Below are positions 5,590 to 40,422 of a stretch of 64,000 nucleotides of DNA, piece by piece. The number at the start of each line of letters is the position of its first letter. The stretch's first letter is position 1. Below the pieces are notes generated by a model that saw only the letters and a list, made by a program, of their open reading frames with translations, did no database searches and was not told where the DNA came from. The translations under genes were made by a program, and so were the position numbers. Source of the stretch: Escherichia coli (lineage in GTDB: Bacteria; Pseudomonadota; Gammaproteobacteria; Enterobacterales; Enterobacteriaceae); the NCBI RefSeq assembly GCF_030384885.1, contig NZ_CP128615.1; one strand, given 5' to 3'.

Positions 5590-5802
5590 ATGAGCCGTCG
5601 CGGCAACTGCTGGGATAATGCAGTGGCAGAATCGTTCTTCAGTTCACTCAAAAAAGAGCGCATCAGGAAGCGGATATACAAAACCCGGGACATGGCCCGG
5701 GCGGATATTTTCGATTATATTGAAGTGTTCTACAACCGGGCCCGGCGCCACAGTCATCTCGGCGGCGTCAGCCCGGAGGCCTTCGAAAAGGCCTCGCAGT
5801 GA
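5590..5802 (+). pseudogene. IS3-family transposase OrfB, 3' part (frame open from about 5527: GSQY...SMSRRGNCWDNAVAESFF)
   Basis: C-terminal DDE-region motifs of IS3 transposases resume immediately after the IS110 insert. Confidence 0.75.
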
Positions 5803-5909: not shown

Positions 5910-7985
5910 TCAATTAACCCCAAGCGCCTTAAACACGGCATCGACGGGGTCTGCATAAAAGCTGATCTGGAATTTTGAGAACAACTCAGCAGGAACCGTT
6001 GGAATATCTGAGGCTGAGGCCATTGGGAGCAAAATACGCTTTGCGCCACTGTCCATAGCTAACTGAAGACTGCCTGCAAGATCTTGAACAGGATTGACGA
6101 CACCACCTAAAGTCATCTCACCCAAAACAACCATCTGCTCTTGAATCGGTCGGTTCATCAGAATTGAACAGAACGCAATTAATGCAGCGAGCGATGACTT
6201 TGTACTTGGCCCCGTATTGTGGAGCTCAACAACATGGAGGTGATACTCATGATCAGAAAACTTCGCCGACGCACTGATTCTATTCAGGTTACCTTTGAAA
6301 TAATCAAAGCCAACACGCACAGCTTCTTTCGCTGCGGTATTCGAACCAAGGCCAGACACTGAGTGTTTACCAGAACCAGCCATCATCTGGGTTTCATAGC
6401 GATATAACCCAAGCTGCCCAGTGCTTCCCTGAGTAACCAAGTGCACGACACCAGCGCGAGGTAAGCCCTCAGGAATTAGCTTGCTGCCACCTTGTTCCGG
6501 TACATTGATGAAGAATTCTTCTAATGAATCGTTATCGATGTAGCTAAAGTGCACATCAAAAAATTCCATTCCGCCAAGCTTTTTCAATTGCTCTTTGACT
6601 CTACGTCTAGTTTCCAGCGCATAGGTCAGGCAGGCTCTTACATCATCTTTTGTGTACTGTGCGTCGGGGTGTAGTAGCTTTAACAAGCCCGAAACAGTTC
6701 TGCGTACAGCAATTACATCACGCTGATTAAGGTTATTACCGAGTTTGAAGAACTTATCGATAGCATCCGCAAAACTTCTTTTGCGCATTTCACGCATGTA
6801 TTCAGCAAGATAGTCTGTGATTAATCCGTAACTATTGGTGAAAAACTCAGGACGCATCTTCGGTATTTCCCATCCAGGAATATAGGAATGGAAACGGTCA
6901 AAAAAAGCAGTGTCAATCATGGCTTCAGGAAAAGGTGCCAACAGATGACTGGTCTTCACCAGTGTCTCAACGCTTTGATTGATGTTACCGACGAATACCA
7001 TGGAAGCCTTCGCTTCGATTGAATCACGACCACGGGCAAAAGACCCTGACGCCATATAATCTTTCATTATTTGGACGCCGTCTTTGTCTTTAAAGTTAAT
7101 ACCCGCTACTTCATCAAAGGCGACAACATCCCACATTCCGACCAACCCAACTTGGCGCGAGCTCATGTTATAGAACAAGTTCGCCACAGTTGTTTGTCCG
7201 CCCGAGACAAGCAATGAGTTTGGTGAGCACTCCTTGTAGACATGGCTTTTACCTGTCCCTCTTGGTCCGAGCTCACAAACGTTGTAGTTGTTTTCAACGA
7301 ATGGGATCATACGAGTGATAAGATGCCATTTCACCCGATGCTCTAAGTTGGTTGGCTCCATACCCACGGAACGAAGCAACACATCCATCCACTGATCGGT
7401 ACTAAAATGTCTTCTGGTTGAAAACACCTCATCCATGTTCATGGACGGCATTTGTATCGGTTTTAAACTCATAATGGAGAAAGGTGATGTCTTCTGACCT
7501 TCCTCAAAGAAATACTGGACGGTAATAATGCACCAGATGCCGCCAGTTAATAATTTTTCGTTGTCTTGTACTATTTTGGTCGGTACAAGGGCATCCTTGA
7601 TACCCAGGTTCGACAACGCAGCTTCATAGACGTCTTTTTTCTGGTTGAGCTTAACGCTTACTTTGTCGATGATTTTAAACGTGCCGCGTTCACGGATCAG
7701 TGACTTCACTTTCTCCGCTTCATCTGGTCGGACATAGTTCTCAGCCAAGATTTTTTTTACATTATCAAGGCCTTGCATTACAACTTCGTCGTCATCGGAC
7801 GCACAATACATGCCTAGTAAATACTCAAGCACATAGACAGGGACGTTAGCGCCTTCTTTCAATTGCTTTGTCAGATCTTTTCGAACGACACGGCCTTTAA
7901 AATATTGGTTGAGCAATGCGTCTAAATCGGCGCTTTGCATCTGATTTTTTTCGTCTTTATGATCTTGTGAAAAATCAGTTGTCAT
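5910..7985 (-). CDS. brxL: BREX protein BrxL (Lon-like protease domain protein)
   Basis: 691 aa; last gene of a brxA-brxB-brxC-pglX-pglZ-brxL syntenic block; Walker-like GPRGTGKSH and C-terminal Lon-protease-like region. Confidence 0.85.
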   Translation of the reverse strand: MTTDFSQDHKDEKNQMQSADLDALLNQYFKGRVVRKDLTKQLKEGANVPVYVLEYLLGMYCASDDDEVVMQGLDNVKKILAENYVRPDEAEKVKSLIRERGTFKIIDKVSVKLNQKKDVYEAALSNLGIKDALVPTKIVQDNEKLLTGGIWCIITVQYFFEEGQKTSPFSIMSLKPIQMPSMNMDEVFSTRRHFSTDQWMDVLLRSVGMEPTNLEHRVKWHLITRMIPFVENNYNVCELGPRGTGKSHVYKECSPNSLLVSGGQTTVANLFYNMSSRQVGLVGMWDVVAFDEVAGINFKDKDGVQIMKDYMASGSFARGRDSIEAKASMVFVGNINQSVETLVKTSHLLAPFPEAMIDTAFFDRFHSYIPGWEIPKMRPEFFTNSYGLITDYLAEYMREMRKRSFADAIDKFFKLGNNLNQRDVIAVRRTVSGLLKLLHPDAQYTKDDVRACLTYALETRRRVKEQLKKLGGMEFFDVHFSYIDNDSLEEFFINVPEQGGSKLIPEGLPRAGVVHLVTQGSTGQLGLYRYETQMMAGSGKHSVSGLGSNTAAKEAVRVGFDYFKGNLNRISASAKFSDHEYHLHVVELHNTGPSTKSSLAALIAFCSILMNRPIQEQMVVLGEMTLGGVVNPVQDLAGSLQLAMDSGAKRILLPMASASDIPTVPAELFSKFQISFYADPVDAVFKALGVN

Positions 7986-8001
7986 GTTTCACCTCAGCGC
8001 C

Positions 8002-10674
8002 TTAGAAAAAATCATCTTGGAATGCCAAATCAATGGTTACCGCGTATTGGCTATAACGGGTTCTCATTTCCGCATTCTCAAGAACTAATGTGTATTGAGC
8101 GTTTCTATCGAACTGGGAGCCAATAAGCTTTAACCTAGCTTCGCGAGTACGTTCATCCATCACTTTACTCACGCTATCAAAGTTAATCGTTTCACGACTG
8201 GAGACTTCATTACCTTGTGCATCGACGATATAGACATCCAACAACCGTGCGACGAAACGCTCGCCTACAGGGTCTGTCTGAATAAATCTGACCTTGTCGA
8301 TATTGTTTACTAATTTGATGGGCTGAGTGGCTGCTACAACACCTACCGGTTGTTTCTCATGTTTTGCTGCTTGTTCTTTTTGTAGCTCTCGCACATGTAG
8401 TACCGGTACGCAGACTTCCTGTAGCATCGCTCCGCCATGCACAAACTTAGCACCACCAACGAAGTGGAAGCGTTGAGCCGCTTTTGGAAGCAGGAACTCG
8501 GTATCACTTGAGCCATGAGCCGTATCGTTAATTGAGCCTTTCCAACAGGCTTCATCTGAAGGCAAGTTATTACCAACGATATAACGTTTCTTGGCTTCTA
8601 TCGCTCCAGCAGGTTTGGTTTTCAACGAGGTTTTGTCAGCCGCTACAAGTGCTTTTTGTTGGAAGAGGAAGCCATGGTCAGCAGTGATCACAACTCGGCT
8701 GCCGTTTAGACGGTTGATGACCCGCCCAACGAGGTCTTTTAGCTCTTCAATGGCACTACGACAGGCTTCAAACGTTTTCTCTTCAGTTGCTGCCTTATCA
8801 CCAATCGCATCAATGGTATCGTGATAGATATAAACGACTTCTACGTCTCGAACCTTGTCACGCCCCTCCTGGTTACTCCAGCTCATCAGTTCCTTAGAAC
8901 TCACTGCCATACCACCTACTTTTTGTAGGATGGCGTTGCGGTTGTCTAGACCCTGTGAAGAAATACCATCCACATAAACAGCCGTGCCTTGCTCTGGCTG
9001 GTAACTGAGCGCCTTATGAGGCAATAATGCCGCCATCCCAAGTTGGGTATAACTCGGCAAAACGCCCAACTGCGTAGACACCTCAGCCTTAAATCGCTTC
9101 TCGTTGTTAATGATAGCGCCAAGCTCATTCGCAATTTCAAAACGCAGGGCATCAGAGATGATCACAAACACTCGTTTTGTCTGTTTCAGACTCAGTCGTG
9201 TGCGAACTTCTTTTTCATAGAAGTCATACTGGTGCGGTACGCCAGAAATCTGCCACTTTTCAAGTAATTTTTCATTGGCCAAGTGACGATCCCATGCAAG
9301 GCCAAGCTCATACAAGTACCAGTTGGTATAAATGCTTTCGACTTCGTCGTCGAGCTGACGCAGTATGTCTGCACCTTTACTCAATACAGAGTGCACATGC
9401 TCATTGAACAAACGGTAAGCCTGGTCAAAACGATAAATGTCTGTGGTATAGGCGTCGTACATTGCTTTCGCGTTATCAAAGTGGAACCCATCCACATAGC
9501 GATTTCGCAAGTGCATTAACTCTTCAGCGTTGCGGATAGCTTCATAAATTGCGAAGTATTCTTTGCGTGACAATGTCCAGTGGCTAGAAAGACGTCTTGA
9601 TAAGACCGTATCAAACTGAACCCGGTCTAGCGCTTTACTGCTATCGAGCAAATCACGAACTAAACCACGGATTATGGCCTGTTCCACAGCTTCGAACGTT
9701 TCGCATTCGATAAGCTCAACCGGATGGTACTGCCCAGCACGAGTCGAAATTTCCAACTGTTGGCTAAGCACCTTAGAGATGCTTTCGTAGTAAGCGGCGA
9801 AAGAGCGGCTGTCGCGCCAGCTCACCATAAACGCCAAGGCTGTCGCCCGGCCTGATGCGCTTTTTAGAACATTGTTAAGCAACCAATCGCGTTCAACACC
9901 TTCAATTTGGCTCCAGAATTCAGTACAGAATAATTTCAACACGAAGTCTGAGAAGGTTGGCTCTTCAACTGTATAGCCAAAACCCTCACTCAGATATGCC
10001 CAGAGTGAGGTCTCAAGATCAAACTTTCCTAGCTGGCTCCATAAAGGTTGACCAAGGCTTTCATCTTCGATATAAGCCGCATATTCGCGTAGTAACCCAA
10101 GCAGAATGTCCGACAAAGACGCAGAATCAGCTTTTACAACCACTGCCATCATCTTTCTGTCTAACGACAGTTCGTCTTCGTTCTCAGTCACCCACTTTTT
10201 TAAACCGGCTATGCGCTGTTTATTGGCAAAAAAGCTCTGGCGCTTACGAATGTGCGTGCGAAGCGCCATTTTCGGAATACCCAGCTCATTAAGCAGCATT
10301 GAGCTGTGATCAGCAAAAAACTGCTCGCTATACAAACGCACGTCTAGCAACCAATCGCGGTCAGGCTCTGGCTCAGCGCTTGGAAAATAGATAAGGAATT
10401 TAGCTTCACGCTCATCTACTTCAATGCGTTTTTTCACTGCCAATACAGACTCATTGCCCATATTGAGGATGGTCAAATCATTTGGAAGCACCCGTGCAGT
10501 TTTATCCGCCGATTTATCGTCTGTTTCTTTTGCAAGCCCTTCTTTTGCAATAGAGAGGGCGTTAGCTAAATGCTCAAGCTCTTCAGTAAAGCTTTGCTCT
10601 GGGTCGTACCAAAACACAATGCGGCTTTGTTCAAATTTGGCAGCAACGCCTTGTGCCAGTTCACTAATCTGCAT
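8002..10674 (-). CDS. pglZ: BREX protein PglZ (alkaline-phosphatase superfamily)
   Basis: 890 aa; position between pglX and brxL; size and composition match PglZ. Confidence 0.85.
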   Translation of the reverse strand: MQISELAQGVAAKFEQSRIVFWYDPEQSFTEELEHLANALSIAKEGLAKETDDKSADKTARVLPNDLTILNMGNESVLAVKKRIEVDEREAKFLIYFPSAEPEPDRDWLLDVRLYSEQFFADHSSMLLNELGIPKMALRTHIRKRQSFFANKQRIAGLKKWVTENEDELSLDRKMMAVVVKADSASLSDILLGLLREYAAYIEDESLGQPLWSQLGKFDLETSLWAYLSEGFGYTVEEPTFSDFVLKLFCTEFWSQIEGVERDWLLNNVLKSASGRATALAFMVSWRDSRSFAAYYESISKVLSQQLEISTRAGQYHPVELIECETFEAVEQAIIRGLVRDLLDSSKALDRVQFDTVLSRRLSSHWTLSRKEYFAIYEAIRNAEELMHLRNRYVDGFHFDNAKAMYDAYTTDIYRFDQAYRLFNEHVHSVLSKGADILRQLDDEVESIYTNWYLYELGLAWDRHLANEKLLEKWQISGVPHQYDFYEKEVRTRLSLKQTKRVFVIISDALRFEIANELGAIINNEKRFKAEVSTQLGVLPSYTQLGMAALLPHKALSYQPEQGTAVYVDGISSQGLDNRNAILQKVGGMAVSSKELMSWSNQEGRDKVRDVEVVYIYHDTIDAIGDKAATEEKTFEACRSAIEELKDLVGRVINRLNGSRVVITADHGFLFQQKALVAADKTSLKTKPAGAIEAKKRYIVGNNLPSDEACWKGSINDTAHGSSDTEFLLPKAAQRFHFVGGAKFVHGGAMLQEVCVPVLHVRELQKEQAAKHEKQPVGVVAATQPIKLVNNIDKVRFIQTDPVGERFVARLLDVYIVDAQGNEVSSRETINFDSVSKVMDERTREARLKLIGSQFDRNAQYTLVLENAEMRTRYSQYAVTIDLAFQDDFF

Positions 10675-13600
10675 TAGTTAACCTCCGGGGCCGAACCGGT
10701 AATGGCCTTAACATCAGCCAACAGATCACCAAACTTGCCGTAATTCACTTTCACGCCATCATCCAAATCCAGTGAAATACGCATATCAGCGTAGTGTTTT
10801 AGCTTGTCATCAAACTCGCGTAGTTCAACCTGTTTCTTGATTAAGGCATCCAACTCTTTCTTGAAGCGGTTCGCTTCACTGGTCGAGTCTGCCGTTTCAA
10901 TCTGCTTCTCAAGCTGCTCTGCATAAGCATCGTATTTGCCGAGTAACGGGGTGACATACTCGGTACGCATACGCGAAAGCGTGCCCTCGTTGTAACGGTG
11001 CAGGTAAACCAGGCACTCAAAAGCCTTCTGTTTGCCTGAGCTAAACAACCAATAAATAGGACGTTTTTTGTATGTCTTCAGGTGGTCTTTGTAGAATTGA
11101 GTCGATAAATAGCGGCGGATCGTCTCAAGAGCTGATTCTGATTTTTTGGGCTTTATGGCATTTAAGCACAGAGACTCTGCAACAAAATCGAGATTTTCTT
11201 GTAAGTGTTCTTCACCCCAAACAACTTGGACAAACTCGCGGAAACGATTGGTTGCGTCGTCCTTGAACCATTCTTGGTCGGTTAGGGGAATGATGCCATT
11301 TTCGTCGGCAGCAAAAGATTGATAAGCACCTTCGGCAACGAGTTTATCAAACCCATAATTACAAGCATGAGCGTAGACTAAGCCTTCACGATCAAGAGAG
11401 TAACGCCCCATCATGCAACCAATGGAGTAACTAATGAGTTCACAGGTTGTATCAGATTTTAACTTACTTAAATCAGTAGAATTTTCATATCGAAAAGCAG
11501 GGTTAGCAAATAATGATAGTGTTGAAATATCTATTGAAACCGGCACCGAAATTCCAAAATCATTGCATATTAAAGAATTAACTTCACTTTCCAAATTGGC
11601 TTGTTCATTAACTAGATTTAACTTCACTTCATTTAGAACCTGATAAGATTCAGCAATTTTGGCACGTTTTATTTTACACAGAGGCGAACATTCAAAGTTC
11701 CATGACGTTTCGTACATATCCCAATCAACCTTTGCGTTGGAAATTAAATCGCTCACCTTTTCAAACAATGCTTCTTTGTCAGCCTTATTGAAAATTGCCG
11801 GCAATGAGGCTATTTGACTCGTTTCATAGTTAAGCGTTGGCGAAATGATTTTTAACTGTTCCAGCACTACAGATGAGTTTAACTGAGCCAATAAGGCATA
11901 TTCTTCAATTCGAGAATTAAGAAATACTGATGCACCTGCAACGTCAAATATCGCTCCTTCAGGCTGCCATCTGAACGATGGAATTCCACTCGAAATTTTT
12001 GACCAAGTTACTGAGCTACGAAAATAAAATGCACCATTTTTCACAGTTCTAGTAGGAGACCCATACAAACTTTTAGCGTATGCAAATACCTCTTCACCTG
12101 CATTTTCCCAATTAATTACGTATTCCTGATTGCCATACCATTTTCTATATGAACCGCCTTTATTATATGGAAACCATTTGAATCCTGAGGATTCAGCTTC
12201 ATCTTTAGAACTAGAGTCATACATTGAGGTGTTTACTGGAACTTCATGCCATAGCCTTAAGAATCTATTATTATCACTTGTTTGACACCCAACTCTAGTT
12301 TTAGCAACTGACGATATTGGCGCGTCCATAAATGTATTTAATATTTCCTTGGCAACCCAATAAGCAATCGGACTCCCAGGAATCTTTTTGAAATCATCCT
12401 GAGCTGTCGCTGCAAATTCATTCTCTCTATTGAGCAATGCTTTTTGCTTTTCTTCTTCATTGCCATCTATCAGCCTATAAAAGGTAGGTTGATAATGATT
12501 GATGTGCTTATTTTGAATAATCCAGGCAGTAGTCTGTACAACCTCGCCACTAATCTGACTAAAAGCGCGTGCACCGAGGTGAGCCATAGTAATAAATGTA
12601 TGGTCTTCCAATAAATTGTTTCTTAGTTGCTCATAACTCGACAAGAACATCCACGATTGCATATTGATTTGAGCATTAAATCCATATTGAGAAAGCAATT
12701 TAAATGCTCGCTCCATAAAAATGGCAAACAAGTCTGATTTACTATTTGGGTATTGTTTCTTAGCAAACTCTTTCAAATCTGCATTCATTCCTTTTGCTCC
12801 CATATAGGGAGGATTAGCAATCACAGCATCGTAACGAATAGATAAAACCAAAGCCTGGTGAACAAACTCAATCAATTGCTTCGCTGCCAGCTTCTGCATT
12901 GAGTCGCCTGACTCTTGTAGCTCTACTAGCGTGCTCAGGAGCTCTTTTAGCTGTTCATGGTCATCGCTTGGTACATCAATCAATGAACCAAAGGTCTTGG
13001 CTTGAGTAAATCTTGCCAACGTTCGCTTCAGCAGTTGGTAGCGGTTGTCTGCATTGAACGAGCTTAAATCTTGCTCTTCGTCAGAGAACAGTCCTTGTGA
13101 TGTGCCGCTTTGCCAACTTCCCGATAGGTTGAGTGCTTTCCATAAGGTCGGCAGATCAATATGGTTACTTTCCTGCAATGACAGTACATTGAGTCGCACG
13201 TTACGGGTAAAAATACGCTTGTCGTCATCTCTCGCCATCATCATCAGGGCAAAGCCAGATAGCTGTGCTGCACGATCATCTATGTCCAAGCCGAAGAGGT
13301 TGTTCTCCAGGATCATCTTTGGAATGTCACGAGAGCGGAAACCACGTTCTTCGTAGATGGCTTTTAGTACGTTGTAAGCTTCAATCAGTATGTGGCCCGA
13401 GCCACAAGCGGGATCGAGTACTTTGATGGTTTCAGGTTCAATCGATTCTGGCGTAATAGCCTTTAGCTGTTGGTTAACTTCGTCAGATTGCTGCGCAGGC
13501 TCAATGTAGTATTCCATCTGGCTTTTAATGGCAGAGTCTGGGTAGGTTTGCAGCCATTGACGACCGACTGAGTTTTGTACCAGGTACTTTACAATCCAGT

Positions 13601-14342
13601 TAGGTGTAAATAGCTGAGTAGCGGCAGGAATGTCTTCACTTTTGACTACTTTTCCGATGACCTGATCTTTCTTTTCAGAAATGTAGAATTGGTAAAGCCA
13701 ACCAATCACTTCGACTTGTTGCCAGTCCTCTTCAGGGATGCCGTCTACCAATCCACGCAGAATGGAGTCGGTACGCATTAGGTTGTCTGGTAGCAGAAGC
13801 TCTGTTTCATCGTCCAATGCGTCAAATAAGAAAGGCATCGCTTCATGTAGCTTATGGCACTGGCCTAACAGCAGTTCACGATACAGCTCTTCGTCTTTGT
13901 TGCCCGCAAGCTTGAGTTCAACAATGCGAGCTCTATCTAATCCGAGTTCATCCGCAGCGTCTTGGGCATGGTCGATAATTTCAAAGCCTTTAGGGTTGTC
14001 TGGGTGCGACAAAACACGAAAACCGTGGCCTAGATAGTCATGGATTTCCATATAGCGAATAGCACACAGACGGTTGAACCAGGTATAAGCTACTTGTTCA
14101 ATAAGTTGTGCATACCCAAGTTTCTGGCTTCTGGCTACTATGCGTTTTCTGGGCTCGGCCAGTTTACCGTCAAAACTGTTACCAGCGATTTGAAGCACAG
14201 AACCTTGTAGATTCGCTTCTGCAATTTGTAGCTCGCCCTTTTTATTCGCGGTGATACCAAAGGTATTTAATCGTTTAGCTACCGCATCCATAAATTCGCG
14301 GCGCGCTTTTGGTGCGTATTTTTTAATGTTGTTCGTATTCAT
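10674..14342 (-). CDS. pglX: BREX N6-adenine DNA methyltransferase PglX
   Basis: 1222 aa; contains the amino-methyltransferase motif IV NPPY (VIANPPYMGAKGMN) and an AdoMet-binding-like LDPACGSGHIL motif. Confidence 0.9.
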   Translation of the reverse strand: MNTNNIKKYAPKARREFMDAVAKRLNTFGITANKKGELQIAEANLQGSVLQIAGNSFDGKLAEPRKRIVARSQKLGYAQLIEQVAYTWFNRLCAIRYMEIHDYLGHGFRVLSHPDNPKGFEIIDHAQDAADELGLDRARIVELKLAGNKDEELYRELLLGQCHKLHEAMPFLFDALDDETELLLPDNLMRTDSILRGLVDGIPEEDWQQVEVIGWLYQFYISEKKDQVIGKVVKSEDIPAATQLFTPNWIVKYLVQNSVGRQWLQTYPDSAIKSQMEYYIEPAQQSDEVNQQLKAITPESIEPETIKVLDPACGSGHILIEAYNVLKAIYEERGFRSRDIPKMILENNLFGLDIDDRAAQLSGFALMMMARDDDKRIFTRNVRLNVLSLQESNHIDLPTLWKALNLSGSWQSGTSQGLFSDEEQDLSSFNADNRYQLLKRTLARFTQAKTFGSLIDVPSDDHEQLKELLSTLVELQESGDSMQKLAAKQLIEFVHQALVLSIRYDAVIANPPYMGAKGMNADLKEFAKKQYPNSKSDLFAIFMERAFKLLSQYGFNAQINMQSWMFLSSYEQLRNNLLEDHTFITMAHLGARAFSQISGEVVQTTAWIIQNKHINHYQPTFYRLIDGNEEEKQKALLNRENEFAATAQDDFKKIPGSPIAYWVAKEILNTFMDAPISSVAKTRVGCQTSDNNRFLRLWHEVPVNTSMYDSSSKDEAESSGFKWFPYNKGGSYRKWYGNQEYVINWENAGEEVFAYAKSLYGSPTRTVKNGAFYFRSSVTWSKISSGIPSFRWQPEGAIFDVAGASVFLNSRIEEYALLAQLNSSVVLEQLKIISPTLNYETSQIASLPAIFNKADKEALFEKVSDLISNAKVDWDMYETSWNFECSPLCKIKRAKIAESYQVLNEVKLNLVNEQANLESEVNSLICNDFGISVPVSIDISTLSLFANPAFRYENSTDLSKLKSDTTCELISYSIGCMMGRYSLDREGLVYAHACNYGFDKLVAEGAYQSFAADENGIIPLTDQEWFKDDATNRFREFVQVVWGEEHLQENLDFVAESLCLNAIKPKKSESALETIRRYLSTQFYKDHLKTYKKRPIYWLFSSGKQKAFECLVYLHRYNEGTLSRMRTEYVTPLLGKYDAYAEQLEKQIETADSTSEANRFKKELDALIKKQVELREFDDKLKHYADMRISLDLDDGVKVNYGKFGDLLADVKAITGSAPEVN

Positions 14343-14357
14343 ATGATCTTGCGCCTC

Positions 14358-16121
14358 TTATTCTGTCTCTACGCTGTTTGCGGGTTGTAATGCGGTTCTA
14401 ATGCGGGCAAGCAGTGTTTCCTGACGCTCGCGGTAAAAGTCCATAAACTGGTTTAGTTGTTCAGGTAATGATGTTATGGCTTGCGATTGCAGATGTGCTT
14501 GTCTTGCATTCACATCAGGCCACTGCTGCGCATACCATTCATGGGGCATTTTTTGCCGCTTCTGGTTGTTGATTGTCCCTTCCAACAGTTGAAGGTTTGG
14601 CAGCTTGTTAGATGCCTCGATGAGTTCATCTAGCTGTTCAGCTGGGACACCAACTTTTGCAAGCTTGTTACGCGTAAACAAACCTTTGGGGTAAATGTGG
14701 TCCACATGAAAGTGTCGTGAAAAATCGAATCCTGGGAACAACAAAGTCAACAAGGCAAAGGTACGCGGATTACCATAATCCAACTGCGCTAGTTCACTAA
14801 TTTCCTCTGGGTCAAAGCGCAACGATTTACCACGCTGTTGCATGGTCGCTTCAATTTTCGCTAGCGGGAAACCCGTATCACCCGATTGTTTAATGTCTGA
14901 GCGAAGCATAGTAAGCAGGGTATCCAAACCACTTCCCCAGATGCCTGACGCTTTCAACAACGACCTAATGAGCCAGTTTCTGATGCATTCTCTATCGACC
15001 GCATATTCAACCCTAGAAAGGTAGCTTGCCGTTAACTTTCGGTGGTGCAGGTAATAGGCTAACGGGAGGATGGCACTTGTTGCTCTGAGGTTTTGTGCAT
15101 TAAAACCAAAACTTGCCAGCAACTGCATTGAGAGCAATAACGCATCACGAATTGGCGTCCAGTTCTTTTCGAGAATCGCCATATTTTCCTTGTTAAAGTT
15201 CTCAACCTTAAAGCCCACGCTACCGATGTCAGAGAGCATTAAGCCTGCTTTTAAAACGAGATCTTTTGATACGTTGAATCCATCACCAACACGGTTCATC
15301 TCATCCACTAAGGCATGAATTTCTTCACGGGCATCTAACGAGCTCCACTGCGCTACGGCTATTGAAAGTAGTAAGTCTGAGTAGGACAAAGTAGTGCCGC
15401 CGCTATTCATGCGGATAAAGATATTCAGAACACGTTCAAGGCTCTGATCACTTTCTTCGTAAAACGAAATCTTATCTTTGTCATGGATAGTTCGATACAA
15501 GTGACGAAGAGTTGAGCGAGCCTCTTTGCGTTGCTCCGAGCTCAACCTAGCATCATCAGCAACTTCATCGATAAGTGCATCTTCTTCCTCTTCCATGATC
15601 CGGCCTACACGGAACCAGTATTGTTCAGATGCATCCAAAGAGGCTTTATCGTCGGTTAGGAACTCAAAGTCATACATCGACCCAGTTTCTAAGTCGGGCT
15701 GGCTTAACAGATTTAAGTGAAGCCTGCGCACTGGGAAGGCGTCATCATTGCTCCACCATTTACCTGTCAGCTTCCACGCAAATGAGCCGCGTAGGCCGAT
15801 GTTCAAAGCGGTAATCCGCTGCTGTCCATCTAGGACGGCAATGAACTCACGCTCTGGTAACTGAGTGACATTTTCACAATGGTAGTTATCTCGCTCATGG
15901 TAATGCTGCATGAACTGATAAAACTGATAGCTATGCCGGTTCTCTGGTTTTATCTTCCAGAATAGAAAGGTCCCAAACGGGTAACCTTGCAACAGGCTAT
16001 CAAATAGACGACAGATCTGTTCTGGTCGCCATACAAACTCTCGCTGGATGGCCGGTAACAGGTATTCCTGCTCAGCAACCTTGTCGAGTAATGATCTTAT
16101 TGTTCCACCCGCTTGATACAT
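14358..16121 (-). CDS. brxU: GmrSD-family type IV restriction endonuclease (DUF262 plus DUF1524), BrxU-like, embedded in the BREX locus
   Basis: 587 aa; N-terminal DUF262 motifs (LPAIQREFVW, DGQQR), C-terminal DUF1524 His-Me finger motif (HVDHIYPK); sits between brxC and pglX. Confidence 0.75.
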   Translation of the reverse strand: MYQAGGTIRSLLDKVAEQEYLLPAIQREFVWRPEQICRLFDSLLQGYPFGTFLFWKIKPENRHSYQFYQFMQHYHERDNYHCENVTQLPEREFIAVLDGQQRITALNIGLRGSFAWKLTGKWWSNDDAFPVRRLHLNLLSQPDLETGSMYDFEFLTDDKASLDASEQYWFRVGRIMEEEEDALIDEVADDARLSSEQRKEARSTLRHLYRTIHDKDKISFYEESDQSLERVLNIFIRMNSGGTTLSYSDLLLSIAVAQWSSLDAREEIHALVDEMNRVGDGFNVSKDLVLKAGLMLSDIGSVGFKVENFNKENMAILEKNWTPIRDALLLSMQLLASFGFNAQNLRATSAILPLAYYLHHRKLTASYLSRVEYAVDRECIRNWLIRSLLKASGIWGSGLDTLLTMLRSDIKQSGDTGFPLAKIEATMQQRGKSLRFDPEEISELAQLDYGNPRTFALLTLLFPGFDFSRHFHVDHIYPKGLFTRNKLAKVGVPAEQLDELIEASNKLPNLQLLEGTINNQKRQKMPHEWYAQQWPDVNARQAHLQSQAITSLPEQLNQFMDFYRERQETLLARIRTALQPANSVETE

Positions 16122-16137
16122 AGTTATCCGTTGCCTC

Positions 16138-19100
16138 TTACTTAATTCTTACTCGGTCGCCAGCTTTGACCGCAGCAATCAGCTGCTCTCTTAAAGCGGC
16201 AAGATAGGCATCAACTTCGGCTTCACTTTCAATGAATCCGGTTGTTACTGACTTAGCCATGGCATCGGTTGAGTTAATCGTTACGGTACGTTTTGCAACC
16301 GGCTGTGGCTGCACTGGTTCAGAGGCTGGCTCAGGTGCTGGAGCTGCTTTACCGGCTTTCGCTGCTTCCTCTTCGCGTGTCTGCTGTTCGAGTTCACGAC
16401 GTCTTTGCTCAGCTTCAGCTTTTTTGCGTTGATCTTCGATAAAGCCATTCAGCAACTCATAGGCTTCGTCCTCGTAACCTTCCGCTTCAGTTTGCTCACT
16501 GATAATTTGTGGTATTGAAGAGGTCGCTTCAATACGCTGTCTGCACATTTGTAACGGGCGCAGTGCTTGGTTCTGTAATTCAGACGGTGCATGAGCTTCA
16601 GCTAGCGCTTCTTTTACACGTCCGATGCGCAGATCAACACGCTCTAAGGCATGAGTGCGTTTTTCTTCAACCAATGTTGAGTTAATTTTTGCCACCTGCT
16701 CGATAAGCGGATTAATGTGGCGCAGCTGCTCATACGGCGAGGGCATATTGTAAATGCGTTCTAATTCAGTGAGCGCTTTTAATGCTTCACTGTCTTTTTC
16801 TAACGCAGGTCTATTGGCCTTAAACTTCTCGTTCAATGCGCCAGCAAGGGCTTGCCAAGTTTGAAATTGGCTATTGTAGAAGTCATCAAGATCCTCAAAG
16901 TCCTCAGCAAACTCTTCAAGGGCATCAGCGTTTTCTAAGAATCGGGTGATAAGAGCGAAGCTTGAAGTTTGCTCAAGAATACCCGCGACCAATGCAAGAC
17001 CATCGTCAATTTGAGATTTACCTGGGAAATGGCCTGTCTGTGACTTGGTTCTGAATGATTTAAGCTCTTCATTCCAAGCCAGTAATTCATCGCGCACTAA
17101 TTCGTAGAGCTCCTTTTCACCAGAGCCGGTAAAGGTTTTTGAAAAGATCTCTTTAACAAGACCAGCAGCCTTTTTGATTTGGCGCTCGTCATGTTGCCTG
17201 ATTTTATGTACACGGATCTCACCGCGTTTACGCACGCTGGTAAACGGCTCGTAAGCTTTTTTCAACGCCAGATCTGTGCCCTGGGTACTAAAAGATAACT
17301 TTCCAGCCAAGCCCAGCCTTGCAGTGAGCAATAAGATTTCATTGTCTGGCCAGCCATACGGGCGCTTGCCGAAGTGGGCAACGATGTCACGTAAGTAAAC
17401 AGGCTCATTACGCTCGACTTTTAGCGTTACGTACTGCTCAACCTCACGCGTAGCTTCTGGGTTACATTCATCCGCTTGAAGATCCAGTCCAATCTGAGCA
17501 ATATCATCAGCAACAAGTACGGCCTGTAGCTCACGCAAAACTTCACCAGGCGTCGCCTTGAGCATGTTCAATTTAGCGAAGGTGTTTTCGATAACGTATT
17601 TGTATGCTTCTTCGACGATGGCACTTGGCGTTGCTGATTTCTTCGGTAGTTTTGTGCCGATAGCGTAAACGTCAGCCTCTGCAAACAAAGCTTCAAAATC
17701 CGTTCTTAAGCGTTTTTCACGCTCAATATTTTCCATCTGCTTTTCGCGGAGAAGGTGTTCTTGCTCTGGTCGCTGTCCTGAATTTTGTTTTAAGAATCGG
17801 TCAGTTTTTATAAAGGTTGTCAGGTCATCCCAAAGACGTTTATGTTCGCCCAGCTTGACGAGCACGCACCCATCAGCCTCAAGCGTATGATTGATGCAGG
17901 CTTGATCGTGGGAGTAATTTTCAAAGTGCGAATCCAAAGGTGAAATGACTTTAATGACTAGATCTTCCAGCGTGGTGCCATCTTTTGGATGACCATTGCA
18001 AAAACGGCTCACCGCAAAGTCTTGCTTATTAATCGGGTATCGATAGGCACGATTACCTTTCAAAATACCGTCAAATACGATTGCTGAAAGCTTGTTAGAG
18101 ACCTCTGACATTTCAACGTCAGTGTGGCGGATCTCGTTTTCAATCTCTTTTTCTTCGTTGGTCAGGAAGATAAATTCATCACCATTACGCGCAATCAGCA
18201 ATTGGCGTTCAAGACGATTCAAGCTCTCTTCAATTTGTTTACGCAGCGCAATTTTATCTGCATCGATTCGATCAATTGACAGCGTCACAAGGTTGTCTAG
18301 TGTGCTTTTGACAACGTCCACATAACGGATCAAGAAAAGAGTTTTTAGAATCTTGCCATCGAATTCTGTTAAGGAATCCAACTCACAGGCTTGGTCAATC
18401 GTTCGCTTAACCGCTGGCTCCAAAAAGCTTTCAATCGGTGCATAGAAACTGTAAAACGGGATTAACACATCAAGGCCAGAGTCCTTCATCTGTTTTGCAG
18501 CTGATTGGAAAGCATCAAGTAATGAACGCTCACCCATGGCTAAGTGCTTACCCGTCGCGCCTTTTGTTCGAATTGACTCAAACACTTTTTGAACCAGCGT
18601 GTAGTGGTAAGGCACAAACGGATAGTTGTCCACGAAAGACGGAGCGTCGGTGTAGCCCTTTAGAGACGCAGTTGTCGTTTTATCAAATGTCAGCTGGTTA
18701 CGAAGAATGTCGCCCTTTTCAGCAAACACATCGATGAGGTGTGTACGAGCTTCTTCCGTTTTGGACAACAAACGCTTTTGAATAACTTCCGAGGTATTCG
18801 AGCTCGACAGCTGCAAGCGGGTACTAAAACGCCCTTGAATTTTAGAGAAGTCCTCGCCATCGCGCTTATCCATACCACCAATGGCAGCATCAATGTCTGC
18901 CTGAGAGGTAACAACGACCCAAGCTCTGCCACCACAATATGTGCCAAGATCTTCAGTAATGGTCTGAAGCTTCAACATCATTTGTGTGTTCTTACCGATA
19001 AACTGACCGACTTCATCGACTAAGAAAAGAAGGTTACGATCTCCAGTTCGATCTAAGTATTCATTAACCCACTTACAGAAGTTTCGGATATCTAGCGGGA

Positions 19101-19815
19101 AATTGTTTTCAACCTGTTCAACCCACGCTTTGGCAGACTCTAATGATTGCTCACTGGCATGAGCGAGTGCTTCTGAAAGTTCGTCTCGATAGAAGTCATA
19201 GGCGTCACGCTCCTTTTCCCAAGTTGATTGAGTCAACTCAGCAAATTTGTCCTTGAAAGACATGTATTGATTACGCTTATCAAGCTCGCGTTCTAAATGC
19301 GCAATGTGAGGAAAATCAGCGCAGTATCCTACACGCTCATTAAAGACTTTGAGGAAGACCTTAAGAATGGCATTTTCTCGGTCATCCGTATTGGCTCGTG
19401 AATCGATGTTAAAAAGAATAACATCAGTGTCTTTGGTAACAGCGTTTTGGATATCGGCCAACAGCATGGCATCGTTGATTTTGTCTTTAAAAAACTCAAA
19501 TGCTTGACGGCCTTGGCCATCCTTTTCGACAGACTTATTTTCGAGGAGGTAAGACAAAATTTTCAGGAAGTGAGACTTACCCGAACCAAAGAAGCCAGAG
19601 ATCCACACACCAATTTTTCCTGACATTGATGCGCCACTTTGCGTCACAGATGGAACGTAAGCCTCAAAGAAAGCGCGAAAATGTCGATCTAGCTCTCGGG
19701 TTACAACATACTCATCAAGTTCGACATACACACTGTCATTGTCTTTCTGTTCCGCTTTAACAACGCCGTTAATATCACGCGTCAACTTCTTGGAAAAAAT
19801 CTGTTCAATTTTCAT
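16138..19815 (-). CDS. brxC: BREX ATPase BrxC/PglY
   Basis: 1225 aa; Walker A GFFGSGKSHFLK near N-terminus; position after brxB. Confidence 0.85.
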   Translation of the reverse strand: MKIEQIFSKKLTRDINGVVKAEQKDNDSVYVELDEYVVTRELDRHFRAFFEAYVPSVTQSGASMSGKIGVWISGFFGSGKSHFLKILSYLLENKSVEKDGQGRQAFEFFKDKINDAMLLADIQNAVTKDTDVILFNIDSRANTDDRENAILKVFLKVFNERVGYCADFPHIAHLERELDKRNQYMSFKDKFAELTQSTWEKERDAYDFYRDELSEALAHASEQSLESAKAWVEQVENNFPLDIRNFCKWVNEYLDRTGDRNLLFLVDEVGQFIGKNTQMMLKLQTITEDLGTYCGGRAWVVVTSQADIDAAIGGMDKRDGEDFSKIQGRFSTRLQLSSSNTSEVIQKRLLSKTEEARTHLIDVFAEKGDILRNQLTFDKTTTASLKGYTDAPSFVDNYPFVPYHYTLVQKVFESIRTKGATGKHLAMGERSLLDAFQSAAKQMKDSGLDVLIPFYSFYAPIESFLEPAVKRTIDQACELDSLTEFDGKILKTLFLIRYVDVVKSTLDNLVTLSIDRIDADKIALRKQIEESLNRLERQLLIARNGDEFIFLTNEEKEIENEIRHTDVEMSEVSNKLSAIVFDGILKGNRAYRYPINKQDFAVSRFCNGHPKDGTTLEDLVIKVISPLDSHFENYSHDQACINHTLEADGCVLVKLGEHKRLWDDLTTFIKTDRFLKQNSGQRPEQEHLLREKQMENIEREKRLRTDFEALFAEADVYAIGTKLPKKSATPSAIVEEAYKYVIENTFAKLNMLKATPGEVLRELQAVLVADDIAQIGLDLQADECNPEATREVEQYVTLKVERNEPVYLRDIVAHFGKRPYGWPDNEILLLTARLGLAGKLSFSTQGTDLALKKAYEPFTSVRKRGEIRVHKIRQHDERQIKKAAGLVKEIFSKTFTGSGEKELYELVRDELLAWNEELKSFRTKSQTGHFPGKSQIDDGLALVAGILEQTSSFALITRFLENADALEEFAEDFEDLDDFYNSQFQTWQALAGALNEKFKANRPALEKDSEALKALTELERIYNMPSPYEQLRHINPLIEQVAKINSTLVEEKRTHALERVDLRIGRVKEALAEAHAPSELQNQALRPLQMCRQRIEATSSIPQIISEQTEAEGYEDEAYELLNGFIEDQRKKAEAEQRRRELEQQTREEEAAKAGKAAPAPEPASEPVQPQPVAKRTVTINSTDAMAKSVTTGFIESEAEVDAYLAALREQLIAAVKAGDRVRIK

Positions 19816-19833
19816 TCGGGAGGCTCCCTGCTC

Positions 19834-20427
19834 TTAATTTTTTTTACCGTCTTCAGGCACAAGCTTGAAGGCGCGATAGTAGTTTTTAGATTCGATCATG
19901 CCGAAAGGATGCAAATCCCTTCCGCTATATTCACCCGGATAGAAAAGCACTAATGGCGTGCTACCCATAACGTCTTGCAGAGCACTAAGTAACTCATGTC
20001 CTCGGATAAGAGGCCACGCACTGCCTAAGCCTGACAGCAACACAAACTCAAGTTCTGATGGCTTATATTTGTCCGCGATATACCTTGCCACTTTCTCTTG
20101 GCTCAGAGGCCCGGCTAGTGTTTTTCGAAGGCCATCAACACCGACTTGCAATTCACGCTGGCAAGCTCGGTCGAAAAGGCCTCGCTCCTCAAGCATATCT
20201 ATCAAGACTTCAAAAATATTGAGATGGACAAAGCGGTAACCACGCTTGTTGAGTTTTTCGTCAACGTGCTTAATGTGCTCTCGTACAAGCAGTTCATACT
20301 TGGCTGGATAGTCAAATACCCAAAATCCAATTTCATTGCCCAAGCCATCGTTTTTCAAAAACTTAGGGCTTTCAATTCGTTCCAGTATCAGATCAAGCCT
20401 GGTCTGAAGAGCCTTCATATTGTGCAC
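19834..20427 (-). CDS. brxB: BREX protein BrxB (DUF1788)
   Basis: 197 aa; overlaps brxA by 13 bp; size and position as in type 1 BREX. Confidence 0.8.
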   Translation of the reverse strand: MHNMKALQTRLDLILERIESPKFLKNDGLGNEIGFWVFDYPAKYELLVREHIKHVDEKLNKRGYRFVHLNIFEVLIDMLEERGLFDRACQRELQVGVDGLRKTLAGPLSQEKVARYIADKYKPSELEFVLLSGLGSAWPLIRGHELLSALQDVMGSTPLVLFYPGEYSGRDLHPFGMIESKNYYRAFKLVPEDGKKN

Positions 20428-21014
20428 TCCATTACCTCAATCAAATCTTCCCGGCCCAGACGAACTAACCAGTCTTTAACTTCTGGCATTAGGTAAACAG
20501 GTTGTATTTTCTTTGTCCTGCTATCACTCAGGTAGCCACTATCAACCAGTGCCTTAATTGCGTTGTTACCCATTTTTTTGACAGTTGAGTCAGAAAAACC
20601 GCCAAGCTCAGCATATGCCCGCACTCTCGTGTCATAAAACTCAGACCATGCATCAGCGGTTAAAGAGGGTTTATAGGTGCGACGAGCTTCGGCTAAGGTA
20701 AGTCGCATAAAATAAGCGACAACCGGAGAATGAATGAGTAATGACATCATCAGCATTTGGACATAGGCACGTTCACTCGCGGCTAAAAGATCAGTCATAA
20801 ACTCATCACCCAGGCCTTCAATACGCCAACGGATTGTTCTGGCATAACGAATAGCCGTCTGACCGGATTTTTTCTGAAGAACATTTTGCTCAACGATCAG
20901 CGACTTCCACTCATCTTCTGGAAGTTTTTTCAATAGCGATTCTGCGATTATTCTAGATTCAGTTATCAATAAACTGCCTCCGATAAGATCGCCTAAATAT
21001 TCTTTTATATTCAT
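20415..21014 (-). CDS. brxA: BREX protein BrxA (DUF1819)
   Basis: 199 aa; first structural gene of the BREX block. Confidence 0.8.
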   Translation of the reverse strand: MNIKEYLGDLIGGSLLITESRIIAESLLKKLPEDEWKSLIVEQNVLQKKSGQTAIRYARTIRWRIEGLGDEFMTDLLAASERAYVQMLMMSLLIHSPVVAYFMRLTLAEARRTYKPSLTADAWSEFYDTRVRAYAELGGFSDSTVKKMGNNAIKALVDSGYLSDSRTKKIQPVYLMPEVKDWLVRLGREDLIEVMECTI

Positions 21015-21023
21015 AAATTCATC

Positions 21024-21950
21024 TCACGATTCGCTATATCCAGGAGCGAGTGCAGCATTGTCAACGCCGTATAGTGCTTCTGGATTTTTAAGTGCTAAAT
21101 GGAACTCTCGCCCATTGCTCTTACAATTCTTTGAACAATCGATATTCCATAAACGCAGTAAATATCCAGCGAACGCAGCTCTTATCTCTACACGCAACCT
21201 ATTGTTTTCCATTGCGTAGTCCATCGATACAGCTTCTGGATGTGCTAGTTTTGGATGAGGTATCAGCTCTAGCTCAACGATTCGGTTCCATTGCTTATCC
21301 CACTGAAGAGTCTCAACTTCGTCGTTAACCTCATCCTCTAACAACTCAACTTCACTTATTCTGGTTAAAACAAAATCCCTAAATTCTCTAAGCTTTCTAT
21401 CGAATGCTCGGACATGCCATCTCAAGCCATTGTCAATCAGGGTATGAGGAACTATTTGCCTGCTCCCATGACCACTCGACAATGAGGTGTACTCAATATT
21501 AATCACAGCGCGCTTATGTATGGCTTCACTAATAGCCGCTACAACTTCCAATTTCGGCTTATTGAGATGGAATGGTGCTTCACAAGCCATAGGTGGCCTG
21601 GCCTTGCCAAGAAAGCCATCACCGAACCCTTGGCTTATCGTCGCAAGAGTTCGAACAACGTCATAATCAAACAACGGCTGGAATGCGCTCGTCTTCAAGT
21701 GCACTCTGCGCTTTTCGTCATACATAACGTTGTTAGGAGCCAACTCTTTGTACCGCGCAAAATCTTGTGTTGCCACAGACGGCGCTACGCTAAATCGCTC
21801 GGTTAAATAACTACGCCCAGCTTCACCTTTAAATAACAAAGTGAAATCAATATGAGCGAGTCGTTCTCTCTGTGCTTGGCTAAGCTCTTCAAGTCCAGTG
21901 TTGTCTTGCACTGTCAGCCTCTCAATCCATCTGGGACAAGCCCTAATCAT
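21024..21950 (-). CDS. brxR: WYL-domain transcriptional regulator BrxR (wHTH-WYL)
   Basis: 308 aa; N-terminal winged-HTH-like segment and WYL-like core (QIVPHTLIDNGLRWHVRAFD); directly upstream of brxA. True start may be an internal Met. Confidence 0.7.
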   Translation of the reverse strand: MIRACPRWIERLTVQDNTGLEELSQAQRERLAHIDFTLLFKGEAGRSYLTERFSVAPSVATQDFARYKELAPNNVMYDEKRRVHLKTSAFQPLFDYDVVRTLATISQGFGDGFLGKARPPMACEAPFHLNKPKLEVVAAISEAIHKRAVINIEYTSLSSGHGSRQIVPHTLIDNGLRWHVRAFDRKLREFRDFVLTRISEVELLEDEVNDEVETLQWDKQWNRIVELELIPHPKLAHPEAVSMDYAMENNRLRVEIRAAFAGYLLRLWNIDCSKNCKSNGREFHLALKNPEALYGVDNAALAPGYSES

Positions 21951-22269
21951 TTAAAACTAGGAAGCCATCGATTGAATGCCATCAAGCAACCTACTTTTTT
22001 TCATTAGGTATCATAGTATCAACAAGTCGTCTTGTTGGCTATAAAAATTGGCTTGACGTTGTTCGAATGTTTCTTTTCTGGCCTTGATAGAAGCTCACGC
22101 TGGAATGCCAACTGACGCAATTCATTCTCTCGAACACGCCTAGCAACTTCTGCCTGGGCTGGTAGCTGATCTTGACCCTCCATCTCCGAACAGCTTTTGT
22201 ATCTTAAGTTAACGATGTCCGCTGCCGCCGGTATTCCCTCGGGGAGTGATATCCCAGCGCGCTGTGCGG

Positions 22270-25457: not shown

Positions 25458-26342
25458 ATGTCATTACGCACGCCCGATTTATTGTTCACAGCGATAGCAC
25501 CTGCCATTTGGGGCAGCACCTACATTGTCACCACCCAATACCTGCCGAACTTCTCACCGATGACGGTCGCGATGCTGCGGGCGTTGCCGGCGGGTTTATT
25601 GCTCGTGATGATCGTCCGACAGATTCCAACGGGAATCTGGTGGATGCGCATCTTCATCCTCGGCGCACTTAATATTTCGCTATTCTGGAGCTTGTTGTTT
25701 ATTTCGGTCTACCGCCTGCCGGGCGGGGTCGCGGCGACGGTAGGCGCTGTGCAGCCGCTGATGGTCGTGTTCATCTCTGCCGCTCTGCTAGGTAGCCCGA
25801 TACGATTGATGGCGGTCCTGGGGGCTATTTGCGGAACTGCGGGCGTGGCGCTGTTGGTGTTGACACCAAACGCAGCGCTAGATCCTGTCGGCGTCGCAGC
25901 GGGCCTGGCGGGGGCGGTTTCCATGGCGTTCGGAACCGTGCTGACCCGCAAGTGGCAACCTCCCGTGCCTCTGCTCACCTTTACCGCCTGGCAACTGGCG
26001 GCCGGAGGACTTCTGCTCGTTCCAGTAGCTTTAGTGTTTGATCCGCCAATCCCGATGCCTACAGGAACCAATGTTCTCGGCCTGGCGTGGCTCGGCCTGA
26101 TCGGAGCGGGTTTAACCTACTTCCTTTGGTTCCGGGGGATCTCGCGACTCGAACCTACAGTTGTTTCCTTACTGGGCTTTCTCAGCCCGGGGACCGCCGT
26201 GTTGCTAGGATGGTTGTTCTTGGATCAGACGCTGAGTGCGCTTCAAATCATCGGCGTCCTGCTCGTGATCGGGAGTATCTGGCTGGGCCAACGTTCCAAC
26301 CGCACTCCTAGGGCGCGTATAGCTTGCCGGAAGTCGCCTTGA
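25458..26342 (+). CDS. pecM: EamA/DMT-family transporter PecM-like
   Basis: 294 aa, multiple transmembrane segments; located downstream of tetA as in Tn1721. Confidence 0.8.
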   Translation: MSLRTPDLLFTAIAPAIWGSTYIVTTQYLPNFSPMTVAMLRALPAGLLLVMIVRQIPTGIWWMRIFILGALNISLFWSLLFISVYRLPGGVAATVGAVQPLMVVFISAALLGSPIRLMAVLGAICGTAGVALLVLTPNAALDPVGVAAGLAGAVSMAFGTVLTRKWQPPVPLLTFTAWQLAAGGLLLVPVALVFDPPIPMPTGTNVLGLAWLGLIGAGLTYFLWFRGISRLEPTVVSLLGFLSPGTAVLLGWLFLDQTLSALQIIGVLLVIGSIWLGQRSNRTPRARIACRKSP

Positions 26343-26373
26343 CCCGCATGGCATAGGCCTATCGTTTCCACGA

Positions 26374-27573: not shown

Positions 27574-27619
27574 GTCTGGCCTCCGGACCAGCCTCCGCTG
27601 GTCCGATTGAACGCGCGGA

Positions 27620-27672
27620 TTCTTTATCACTGATAAGTTGGTGGACATATTATGTTTATCAGTGATAAAGTG
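27620..27672. promoter_or_regulatory. tetA/tetR divergent promoter with two tet operator palindromes
   Basis: TTTATCACTGATAAG and TTTATCAGTGATAAAG palindromes in the tetA-tetR intergenic region. Confidence 0.6.
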
Positions 27673-27678
27673 TCAAGC

Positions 27679-28329
27679 ATGACAAAGTTGCAGCCGAATA
27701 CAGTGATCCGTGCCGCCCTGGACCTGTTGAACGAGGTCGGCGTAGACGGTCTGACGACACGCAAACTGGCGGAACGGTTGGGGGTTCAGCAGCCGGCGCT
27801 TTACTGGCACTTCAGGAACAAGCGGGCGCTGCTCGACGCACTGGCCGAAGCCATGCTGGCGGAGAATCATACGCATTCGGTGCCGAGAGCCGACGACGAC
27901 TGGCGCTCATTTCTGATCGGGAATGCCCGCAGCTTCAGGCAGGCGCTGCTCGCCTACCGCGATGGCGCGCGCATCCATGCCGGCACGCGACCGGGCGCAC
28001 CGCAGATGGAAACGGCCGACGCGCAGCTTCGCTTCCTCTGCGAGGCGGGTTTTTCGGCCGGGGACGCCGTCAATGCGCTGATGACAATCAGCTACTTCAC
28101 TGTTGGGGCCGTGCTTGAGGAGCAGGCCGGCGACAGCGATGCCGGCGAGCGCGGCGGCACCGTTGAACAGGCTCCGCTCTCGCCGCTGTTGCGGGCCGCG
28201 ATAGACGCCTTCGACGAAGCCGGTCCGGACGCAGCGTTCGAGCAGGGACTCGCGGTGATTGTCGATGGATTGGCGAAAAGGAGGCTCGTTGTCAGGAACG
28301 TTGAAGGACCGAGAAAGGGTGACGATTGA
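27679..28329 (+). CDS. tetR: Tetracycline repressor TetR, class A
   Basis: MTKLQPNTVIRAALDLLNEVGVDGLTTRKLAERLGVQQPALYWHF...; 216 aa from the internal Met. Confidence 0.95.
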   Translation: MTKLQPNTVIRAALDLLNEVGVDGLTTRKLAERLGVQQPALYWHFRNKRALLDALAEAMLAENHTHSVPRADDDWRSFLIGNARSFRQALLAYRDGARIHAGTRPGAPQMETADAQLRFLCEAGFSAGDAVNALMTISYFTVGAVLEEQAGDSDAGERGGTVEQAPLSPLLRAAIDAFDEAGPDAAFEQGLAVIVDGLAKRRLVVRNVEGPRKGDD

Positions 28330-40316: not shown

Positions 40317-40422
40317 AATGAGAGATAGACCGGAACACAACCGGTGCAAGTCCATAGCAACTCGTTTCTTTTCGCAGGTTGAGCCACCTCCGCGCTTCAT
40401 CAGAAAACTGAAGGAACCTCCA

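Follow-up and report, generated by a model that had tools for sequence, protein, structure and literature searches.

An allele of the characterised restriction enzyme BrxU within the type I BREX operon of an IncR-type multidrug-resistance plasmid from Escherichia coli

What does the gene between brxC and pglX encode in the BREX operon of this Escherichia coli plasmid, and is it a known component of such operons? The window analysed here is the whole 64,000-nucleotide stretch of contig NZ_CP128615.1, in which RefSeq labels the gene as a 'DUF262 domain-containing protein' and nothing more. A first-pass annotation had described a 587-aa protein with DGQQR and HVDHIYPK motifs at this junction. The open reading frame, both motifs and the BrxC and PglX neighbours (the latter by PADLOC) were all confirmed, with the addition of the strand, which that annotation had omitted: the gene runs on the minus strand (16121..14358), starts with ATG and encodes 587 aa, the coordinates including the stop codon. 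We conclude that the open reading frame is almost certainly an allele of brxU, the gene already characterised from the Escherichia fergusonii plasmid pEFER, that it encodes a single-chain type IV (modification-dependent) restriction enzyme of the GmrSD family, and that it lies in a type I BREX operon under BrxR control, carried by a multidrug-resistance plasmid of IncR type. Publications from 2021-2025 already cover the BrxU protein, its structure and biochemistry, its position in BREX and the regulator of the operon.

A phmmer search of the PDB returned chain 7P9K_A as the best match (also 7P9M; 1330 bits), with 584 of 587 residues matched over positions 1-587, an agreement that chance could not produce. 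Both entries are crystal structures of BrxU from plasmid pEFER of E. fergusonii ATCC 35469 (Picton et al. 2021, NAR 49:11257, PMC8565348), and the same report places the pEFER gene at the brxC/pglX junction. The locus had been read as coding for a GmrSD/BrxU-type DUF262/DUF1524 nuclease; the protein is BrxU itself, in the same gene order as in pEFER. The three substitutions relative to pEFER BrxU (D63H, K141Q, and S582N, pEFER residue first) fall outside the ten positions mutated in PMC8565348, and all ten of these are kept (Q35, R38, S42, Q101, R102, D474, H475, N485, N519, and E528). At the DNA level brxU differs from the pEFER gene by 19 nucleotides, and the finding that 16 of the differences are synonymous points to purifying selection. 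The best PADLOC model was HEC-05 (PDLC04151), which matched aa 2-580 (E=6.4e-234). According to the preprint of Payne et al. (2024) HEC-05 is BrxU, and the homologue tested there is 99.2% identical to BrxU and defends. HEC-05 was chosen as an Hma-embedded gene, whereas the host system of the same protein family here is BREX.

Three amino-acid differences from the crystallised protein could in principle matter. Together with an altered upstream context (brxS and brxT missing, an adjacent IS1, and operator substitutions, all described below) they leave room for the reading that this allele is inactive or decaying, silenced by its substitutions or by altered expression, so that BREX alone works on the plasmid. 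We consider this very unlikely, because the frame is intact and of full length, the functionally tested residues and the mostly synonymous nucleotide differences speak for a maintained gene, an identical allele is kept in several plasmids, and the other homologue at 99.2% identity was active in the published test. The brxU DNA is 100% identical to the gene of WP_061350061 ('DUF262 domain-containing protein') in plasmid CP024857.

The HMM check for DUF262 and DUF1524 that accompanied the initial claim was carried out against Pfam, and the two domains were recovered with unequal strength. The N-terminal DUF262 domain matched clearly (Table 1). The C-terminal GmrSD_C family (PF07510) gave E=0.013 with full-length BrxU and E=7.9e-4 with the isolated C-terminal domain, for which it was the top Pfam match, though weak. 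Both Pfam domains that define the GmrSD family are present in a single polypeptide, the C-terminal one being marginal on the full-length protein. Since the HMM match is weak, the main support for assigning DUF1524 comes from the DHIYP motif and the crystal structure. Run alone with phmmer against the PDB, the C-terminal domain was almost identical to the DUF1524 domain of the BrxU crystal (E=3e-103), and this search returned no DUF1524 structure besides BrxU. A search of NCBIfam yielded no family model for BrxU or BrxR.

Weak PADLOC matches to SspE (E=3.4e-5, aa 18-107 of the shared DUF262), NsnA, and PDC-M55C raised the question of whether the protein is a different DUF262/DUF1524 enzyme, such as an SspE-like phosphorothioate-sensing nuclease or a DndB-like regulator, and not a type IV enzyme for modified cytosine. 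These matches are, however, confined to the N-terminal DUF262 core, whereas the HEC-05/BrxU models span nearly the entire protein, and the operon neighbours are BREX genes and not ssp or dnd genes. Membership of SspE or Dnd-Ssp systems was rejected on these grounds and is refuted by the 99.5% identity to BrxU; we regard its probability as negligible. SspE, a phosphorothioate-sensing DUF262/DUF1524 nickase, has the DUF262 N-terminal domain and an intertwined dimer in common with BrxU, and differs in its trigger.

Table 1. Positions of brxU, its domains and motifs, the surrounding BREX genes, and putative regulatory features in the window. PADLOC, Pfam, and pEFER identities as obtained in this analysis; roles attributed to a PMC accession are those reported in that source.
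Feature	Coordinates	Strand	Evidence
brxU	14358..16121	-	584/587 identical to PDB 7P9K/7P9M; 99.5% to pEFER WP_000283751; PADLOC HEC-05 E=6.4e-234
DUF262 / GmrSD_N NTPase domain, N-terminal, aa 9-253	15363..16097	-	Pfam PF03235, E=8.3e-34
RLFDS motif, aa 38-42	15996..16010	-	nucleotide binding and dimer/monomer switch (S42), as reported from S42A/S42D and R38A/S42D mutants (PMC8565348)
DGQQR motif, aa 98-102	15816..15830	-	gamma-phosphate positioning for NTP hydrolysis, as reported from Q101A and R102A mutants (PMC8565348)
DUF1524 / GmrSD_C HNH nuclease core, C-terminal, aa 467-544	14490..14723	-	Pfam PF07510 and crystal structure
HVDHIYPK, aa 472-479, containing the DHIYP nuclease motif (D474, H475)	14685..14708	-	motif position
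PbrxR / R-BOX1 operator region	21962..22031	-	homologous to pEFER 12,801-12,870 (EMSA probe coordinates, PMC9122601)
brxR, WYL-domain transcriptional repressor of the island	21024..21950	-	PADLOC WYL E=7e-18; 96.8% to pEFER BrxR; function as reported in PMC9122601
brxA (DUF1819)	20415..21014	-	PADLOC BrxA E=5.3e-108; 97.0% to pEFER
brxB (DUF1788)	19834..20418	-	PADLOC BrxB E=5.6e-71; 98.5% to pEFER
brxC, BREX P-loop ATPase, directly upstream of brxU	16138..19815	-	PADLOC BrxC 1536 bits; 98.7% to pEFER
pglX, BREX N6-adenine methyltransferase and specificity factor, directly downstream of brxU	10674..14342	-	PADLOC PglX 1589 bits; 73.7% to pEFER
pglZ	8002..10674	-	PADLOC PglZ 1145 bits; 98.3% to pEFER
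brxL	5910..7985	-	PADLOC BrxL 1162 bits; 99.7% to pEFER
GC-rich hairpin then T-run, likely operon terminator, ~200 nt past the brxL stop	5683..5702	-	consensus scan only; 7-bp stem, 6 G-C pairs

The gene is part of a complete type I BREX operon in the order brxR-brxA-brxB-brxC-brxU-pglX-pglZ-brxL, all on the minus strand. PADLOC matched all six core genes (E from 5.6e-71 to 0; minus strand, 21014..5910). The gaps on either side of brxU are short, 16 nt to brxC and 15 nt to pglX; the brxU-pglX junction is identical to that of pEFER, and the brxC-brxU junction differs by 1 base. Both junctions (16122-16137 and 14343-14357, minus strand) open with one shared octamer, TAAGAGGC, made up of the stop codon and a GAGG ribosome-binding site; it may be left over from duplication of a brxC-pglX junction, or reflect plain constraint on the ribosome-binding site. 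The individual BREX/BrxU island genes (5910-21950) have a G+C content of 42-46% compared to 51.5% for the whole window, which fits horizontal acquisition from a donor of lower G+C.

The function of BrxU has been determined in pEFER. In the published deletion analysis, BrxU expressed alone from pBAD gave the same phage-resistance profile as the pEFER island without pglX. Deletion of brxU left BREX defence and GCTAAT methylation in place, and protection was lost in the brxU pglX double deletion. As reported in PMC8565348, the purified enzyme degraded DNA containing 5mC, 5hmC, or glc-5hmC to a smear in an ATP-dependent manner and left unmodified DNA uncut. Published work on BrxU gives its preference as glucosylated DNA over 5mC over 5hmC; the T4 protein IPI* inhibited BrxU both in cells and in vitro, and over-expression was not seen to be toxic. 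Of the substrates originally proposed for this locus, hmC and glucosyl-hmC are both cut by pEFER BrxU; the proposed range was too narrow, as 5mC DNA is also cut.

The crystallised protein is an intertwined dimer in which the nucleotide site is occluded by the partner protomer, and ATP drives the dimer into monomers (PMC8565348). In that report, mutants Q101A and R102A bound ATP and had lost both hydrolysis and defence, S42D made dissociation impossible, and S42A was locked as a monomer with faster ATP hydrolysis and zero defence; D474A and H475A kept ATP hydrolysis and lost DNA cleavage. Mutation of the DGQQR and nuclease motifs and assays for modification-dependent cleavage, which had been suggested as checks for the present gene, are thus already in print for a 99.5%-identical BrxU, with loss of function in Q101A/R102A and D474A/H475A. 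The order of events proposed by the authors is NTP binding, dissociation, hydrolysis, re-association (possibly on DNA), and HNH cleavage.

By this identity, we infer that the allele with H63, Q141, and N582 has the activity and mechanism of pEFER BrxU. At rest it would form an intertwined homodimer with each nucleotide site blocked by the partner protomer, and binding of NTP at the DUF262 domain (RLFDS, DGQQR) would split the dimer into monomers. NTP hydrolysis and re-association would be required before the C-terminal DUF1524 HNH nuclease (D474/H475 in DHIYP) could degrade DNA, with no detectable sequence specificity. The predicted targets are DNA with 5mC, 5hmC, or glucosyl-5hmC, the glucosylated form being preferred, while unmodified DNA would be spared, and no BREX protein should be needed for this activity.

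Among published enzymes, BrxU is comparable to Eco94GmrSD and EcoCT GmrSD (type IV enzymes against glc-5hmC; Bair & Black 2007; He et al. 2015), with which it shares a single chain of DUF262 plus DUF1524, a need for NTP in cleaving DNA with modified cytosine, and sensitivity to the T4 protein IPI*. Identity to Eco94GmrSD is only ~13% according to the published BrxU paper, and EcoCT GmrSD is without the RLFDS motif, unlike BrxU. BrxU also has a broader nucleotide, metal, and modification range than these two enzymes, including 5mC.

We then consider how brxU is distributed and whether its position is fixed. The 16.1-kb island was found at 100% DNA identity in the E. coli plasmids CP024857 (IncR, 76.7 kb) and CP080127, and it matched 93 plasmids from Escherichia, Salmonella, Klebsiella, Enterobacter, Providencia, and other genera, 57 of which cover at least 80% of it. 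In complete E. coli genomes brxU was present in 51 of 5,426, with 37 plasmid and 15 chromosomal copies; 49 of the 52 matching records were at least 99% identical and the remaining 3 were 95-99% identical. Two chromosomal copies were inspected, and in both the order brxR-A-B-C-U-pglX-Z-L was kept while pglX lengths differed. To look for an empty site, the 600 nt at the 3' end of brxC were fused to the 600 nt at the 5' end of pglX, and the resulting query was run with blastn against 72,556 plasmids. None of the 128 matching plasmid records carried the joined junction; all close relatives hold the two halves apart, with brxU present. As no empty site was found, there is no evidence of recent brxU mobility, and the term 'inserted' holds for brxU only relative to canonical BREX. 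BrxU homologues are among the commonest known defence genes embedded in BREX (Went et al. 2024), and BrxU-like genes are embedded also in Hma and type I RM systems (Payne et al.).

The missing empty junction and the constant position in the chromosomal copies inspected would be expected if BrxU were functionally coupled to BREX, as an effector nuclease of BREX or as an enzyme modulated by BREX proteins, and had become fixed between brxC and pglX for this reason. The published experiments do not agree with such coupling: BrxU from pBAD reproduces the defence profile of the pglX deletion by itself, and a BREX without brxU still defends and methylates GCTAAT. BrxU-like genes are moreover not confined to BREX, and the missing empty site is explicable by common ancestry within a single lineage of close relatives. 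Functional coupling is on this evidence highly improbable. A broader version, in which brxU is an obligate, fixed component of this BREX lineage with some functional or regulatory coupling, and not a freely mobile embedded cassette, was suggested by the lack of an empty junction in close plasmid relatives, by the exchange of the PglX specificity block around a near-invariant brxU, and by an allele that would operate without brxS/brxT (see below). We judge this to be unlikely as well, given the published deletion data; were it to hold, the relation of BrxU to BREX would go beyond that of two independent layers.

The islands here and in pEFER (NC_011743) were compared gene by gene. The order is the same, and genes other than PglX are 96.8-99.7% identical. 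In comparison with the pEFER BrxU island (Picton et al. 2021; Readshaw et al. 2025), the present locus shares the RLFDS/DGQQR/DHIYP motifs, the brxC-pglX position, the brxR-regulated type I BREX, and the IncR plasmid, and differs by the three BrxU substitutions, another PglX specificity block, the missing brxS/brxT, and 3 substitutions in R-BOX1. The PglX divergence is concentrated at aa ~500-1000 (11340-12840, minus strand), where identity to pEFER PglX is 24-56%, compared to 96-100% in the flanks. In Salmonella PglX the TRD and spacer helices are reported at residues 662-960, and the divergent block spans both as mapped there. The central block looks like a specificity-domain swap, and exchange of this domain is described as an expected mode of variation of PglX. 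With this block diverged, the BREX recognition motif here is probably other than the GCTAAT of pEFER; a non-palindromic N6mA motif of 6 bp would be expected. Comparison with the solved PglX/BrxX structures gave homology over the full length, none identical, so that a motif was not assignable from these structures.

Upstream of the operon the two plasmids diverge. Homology to pEFER ends at 22166, 216 nt upstream of brxR (minus strand), and brxS and brxT of pEFER are missing, with IS1 in their place (in CP024857, the identical plasmid, an IS1 transposase gene). The pEFER group later reported that BREX methylation requires brxS/brxT. In R-BOX1 there are 3 substitutions in and beside the arms of the inverted repeat relative to pEFER (GAAACCTACTGAAAAACAGTAGGTT to GATACCTAATGAAAAAAAGTAGGTT), which weaken the repeat to complementarity at ~6 of 9 arm positions; one repeat is enough for BrxR binding according to PMC9122601. 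BrxR itself has 10 amino-acid changes compared to pEFER BrxR. Given the missing brxS/brxT and the R-BOX1 substitutions, regulation may differ in detail from pEFER.

Two pEFER promoters are repressed by BrxR, a strong one ahead of brxR (PbrxR) and a weaker one ahead of brxA (PbrxA); four putative promoter regions are named in the source report, none of them specific for brxU, and promoter activity was not detected in the region upstream of pglZ (PMC9122601). Between brxR and pglZ our consensus scan detected nothing promoter-like on the minus strand, a result of little weight since the scan is insensitive and also missed the published PbrxR. The same scan found no terminator-like site at either brxU junction. 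Taken together, the 15-16 nt junctions, the terminator-free junctions in the scan, and the published promoter mapping make it likely that brxU is co-transcribed with BREX from PbrxR/PbrxA under BrxR repression. The initial suggestion of co-regulation with BREX is plausible in this light and has partial published support in the repression of PbrxR and PbrxA by BrxR and the lack of a pglZ promoter, while co-transcription itself is inferred.

The remainder of the window was also surveyed. Near 51-55 kb lies the replication and partition region, which matches the part of IncR plasmid CP024857 where replication initiation and AAA ATPase genes are found. Resistance cargo was found at 25458-28329 and 40237-42062 and consists of tet(A) (892 bits), accompanied by tetR and an EamA-type transporter, and of aph(3'')-Ib with aph(6)-Id (strA/strB); it is flanked by Tn3-family transposons and IS elements. 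A Gabija-like pair lies ~3.7 kb beyond brxL (1-2156, plus strand), in which GajA (E=6.2e-73) runs off the left end of the window and precedes a short, 340-aa GajB-like protein (E=1.7e-47). Truncation of GajA was considered and rejected as an artefact of the window edge, with no in-frame stop before position 22. This module occurs in more than 2,600 plasmid records, where the RefSeq labels are 'AAA family ATPase' and 'hypothetical protein'; in one GenBank record the second gene is called 'DNA helicase UvrD'. PADLOC matched a 247-aa open reading frame at 56896-57639 (minus strand) to PDC-S67 (E=3.6e-45), an untested candidate; the CP024857 copy of this reading frame adjoins a site-specific integrase gene and is labelled hypothetical. 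The otherwise identical CP024857 carries a ~2.3 kb group II intron (ltrA; ~7811-10076) between its vapBC region and IS110, which is absent here (junction at 3975). A separate reverse-transcriptase-like open reading frame, possibly truncated at 336 aa, is located at 47460-48470.

With only this RefSeq label and no NCBIfam model, scans will keep flagging brxU as unexplained. Among E. coli multidrug-resistance plasmids the island of BREX and BrxU is in circulation at 100% identity, and plasmids from Salmonella, Klebsiella, and other Enterobacterales carry close variants. Its two systems would act as complementary layers, BREX stopping phages without N6mA at the PglX motif and BrxU removing phages that hypermodify cytosine. 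A single mobile island would then restrict both hypermodified T-even-like phages and unmodified phages, which gives it relevance to phage therapy.
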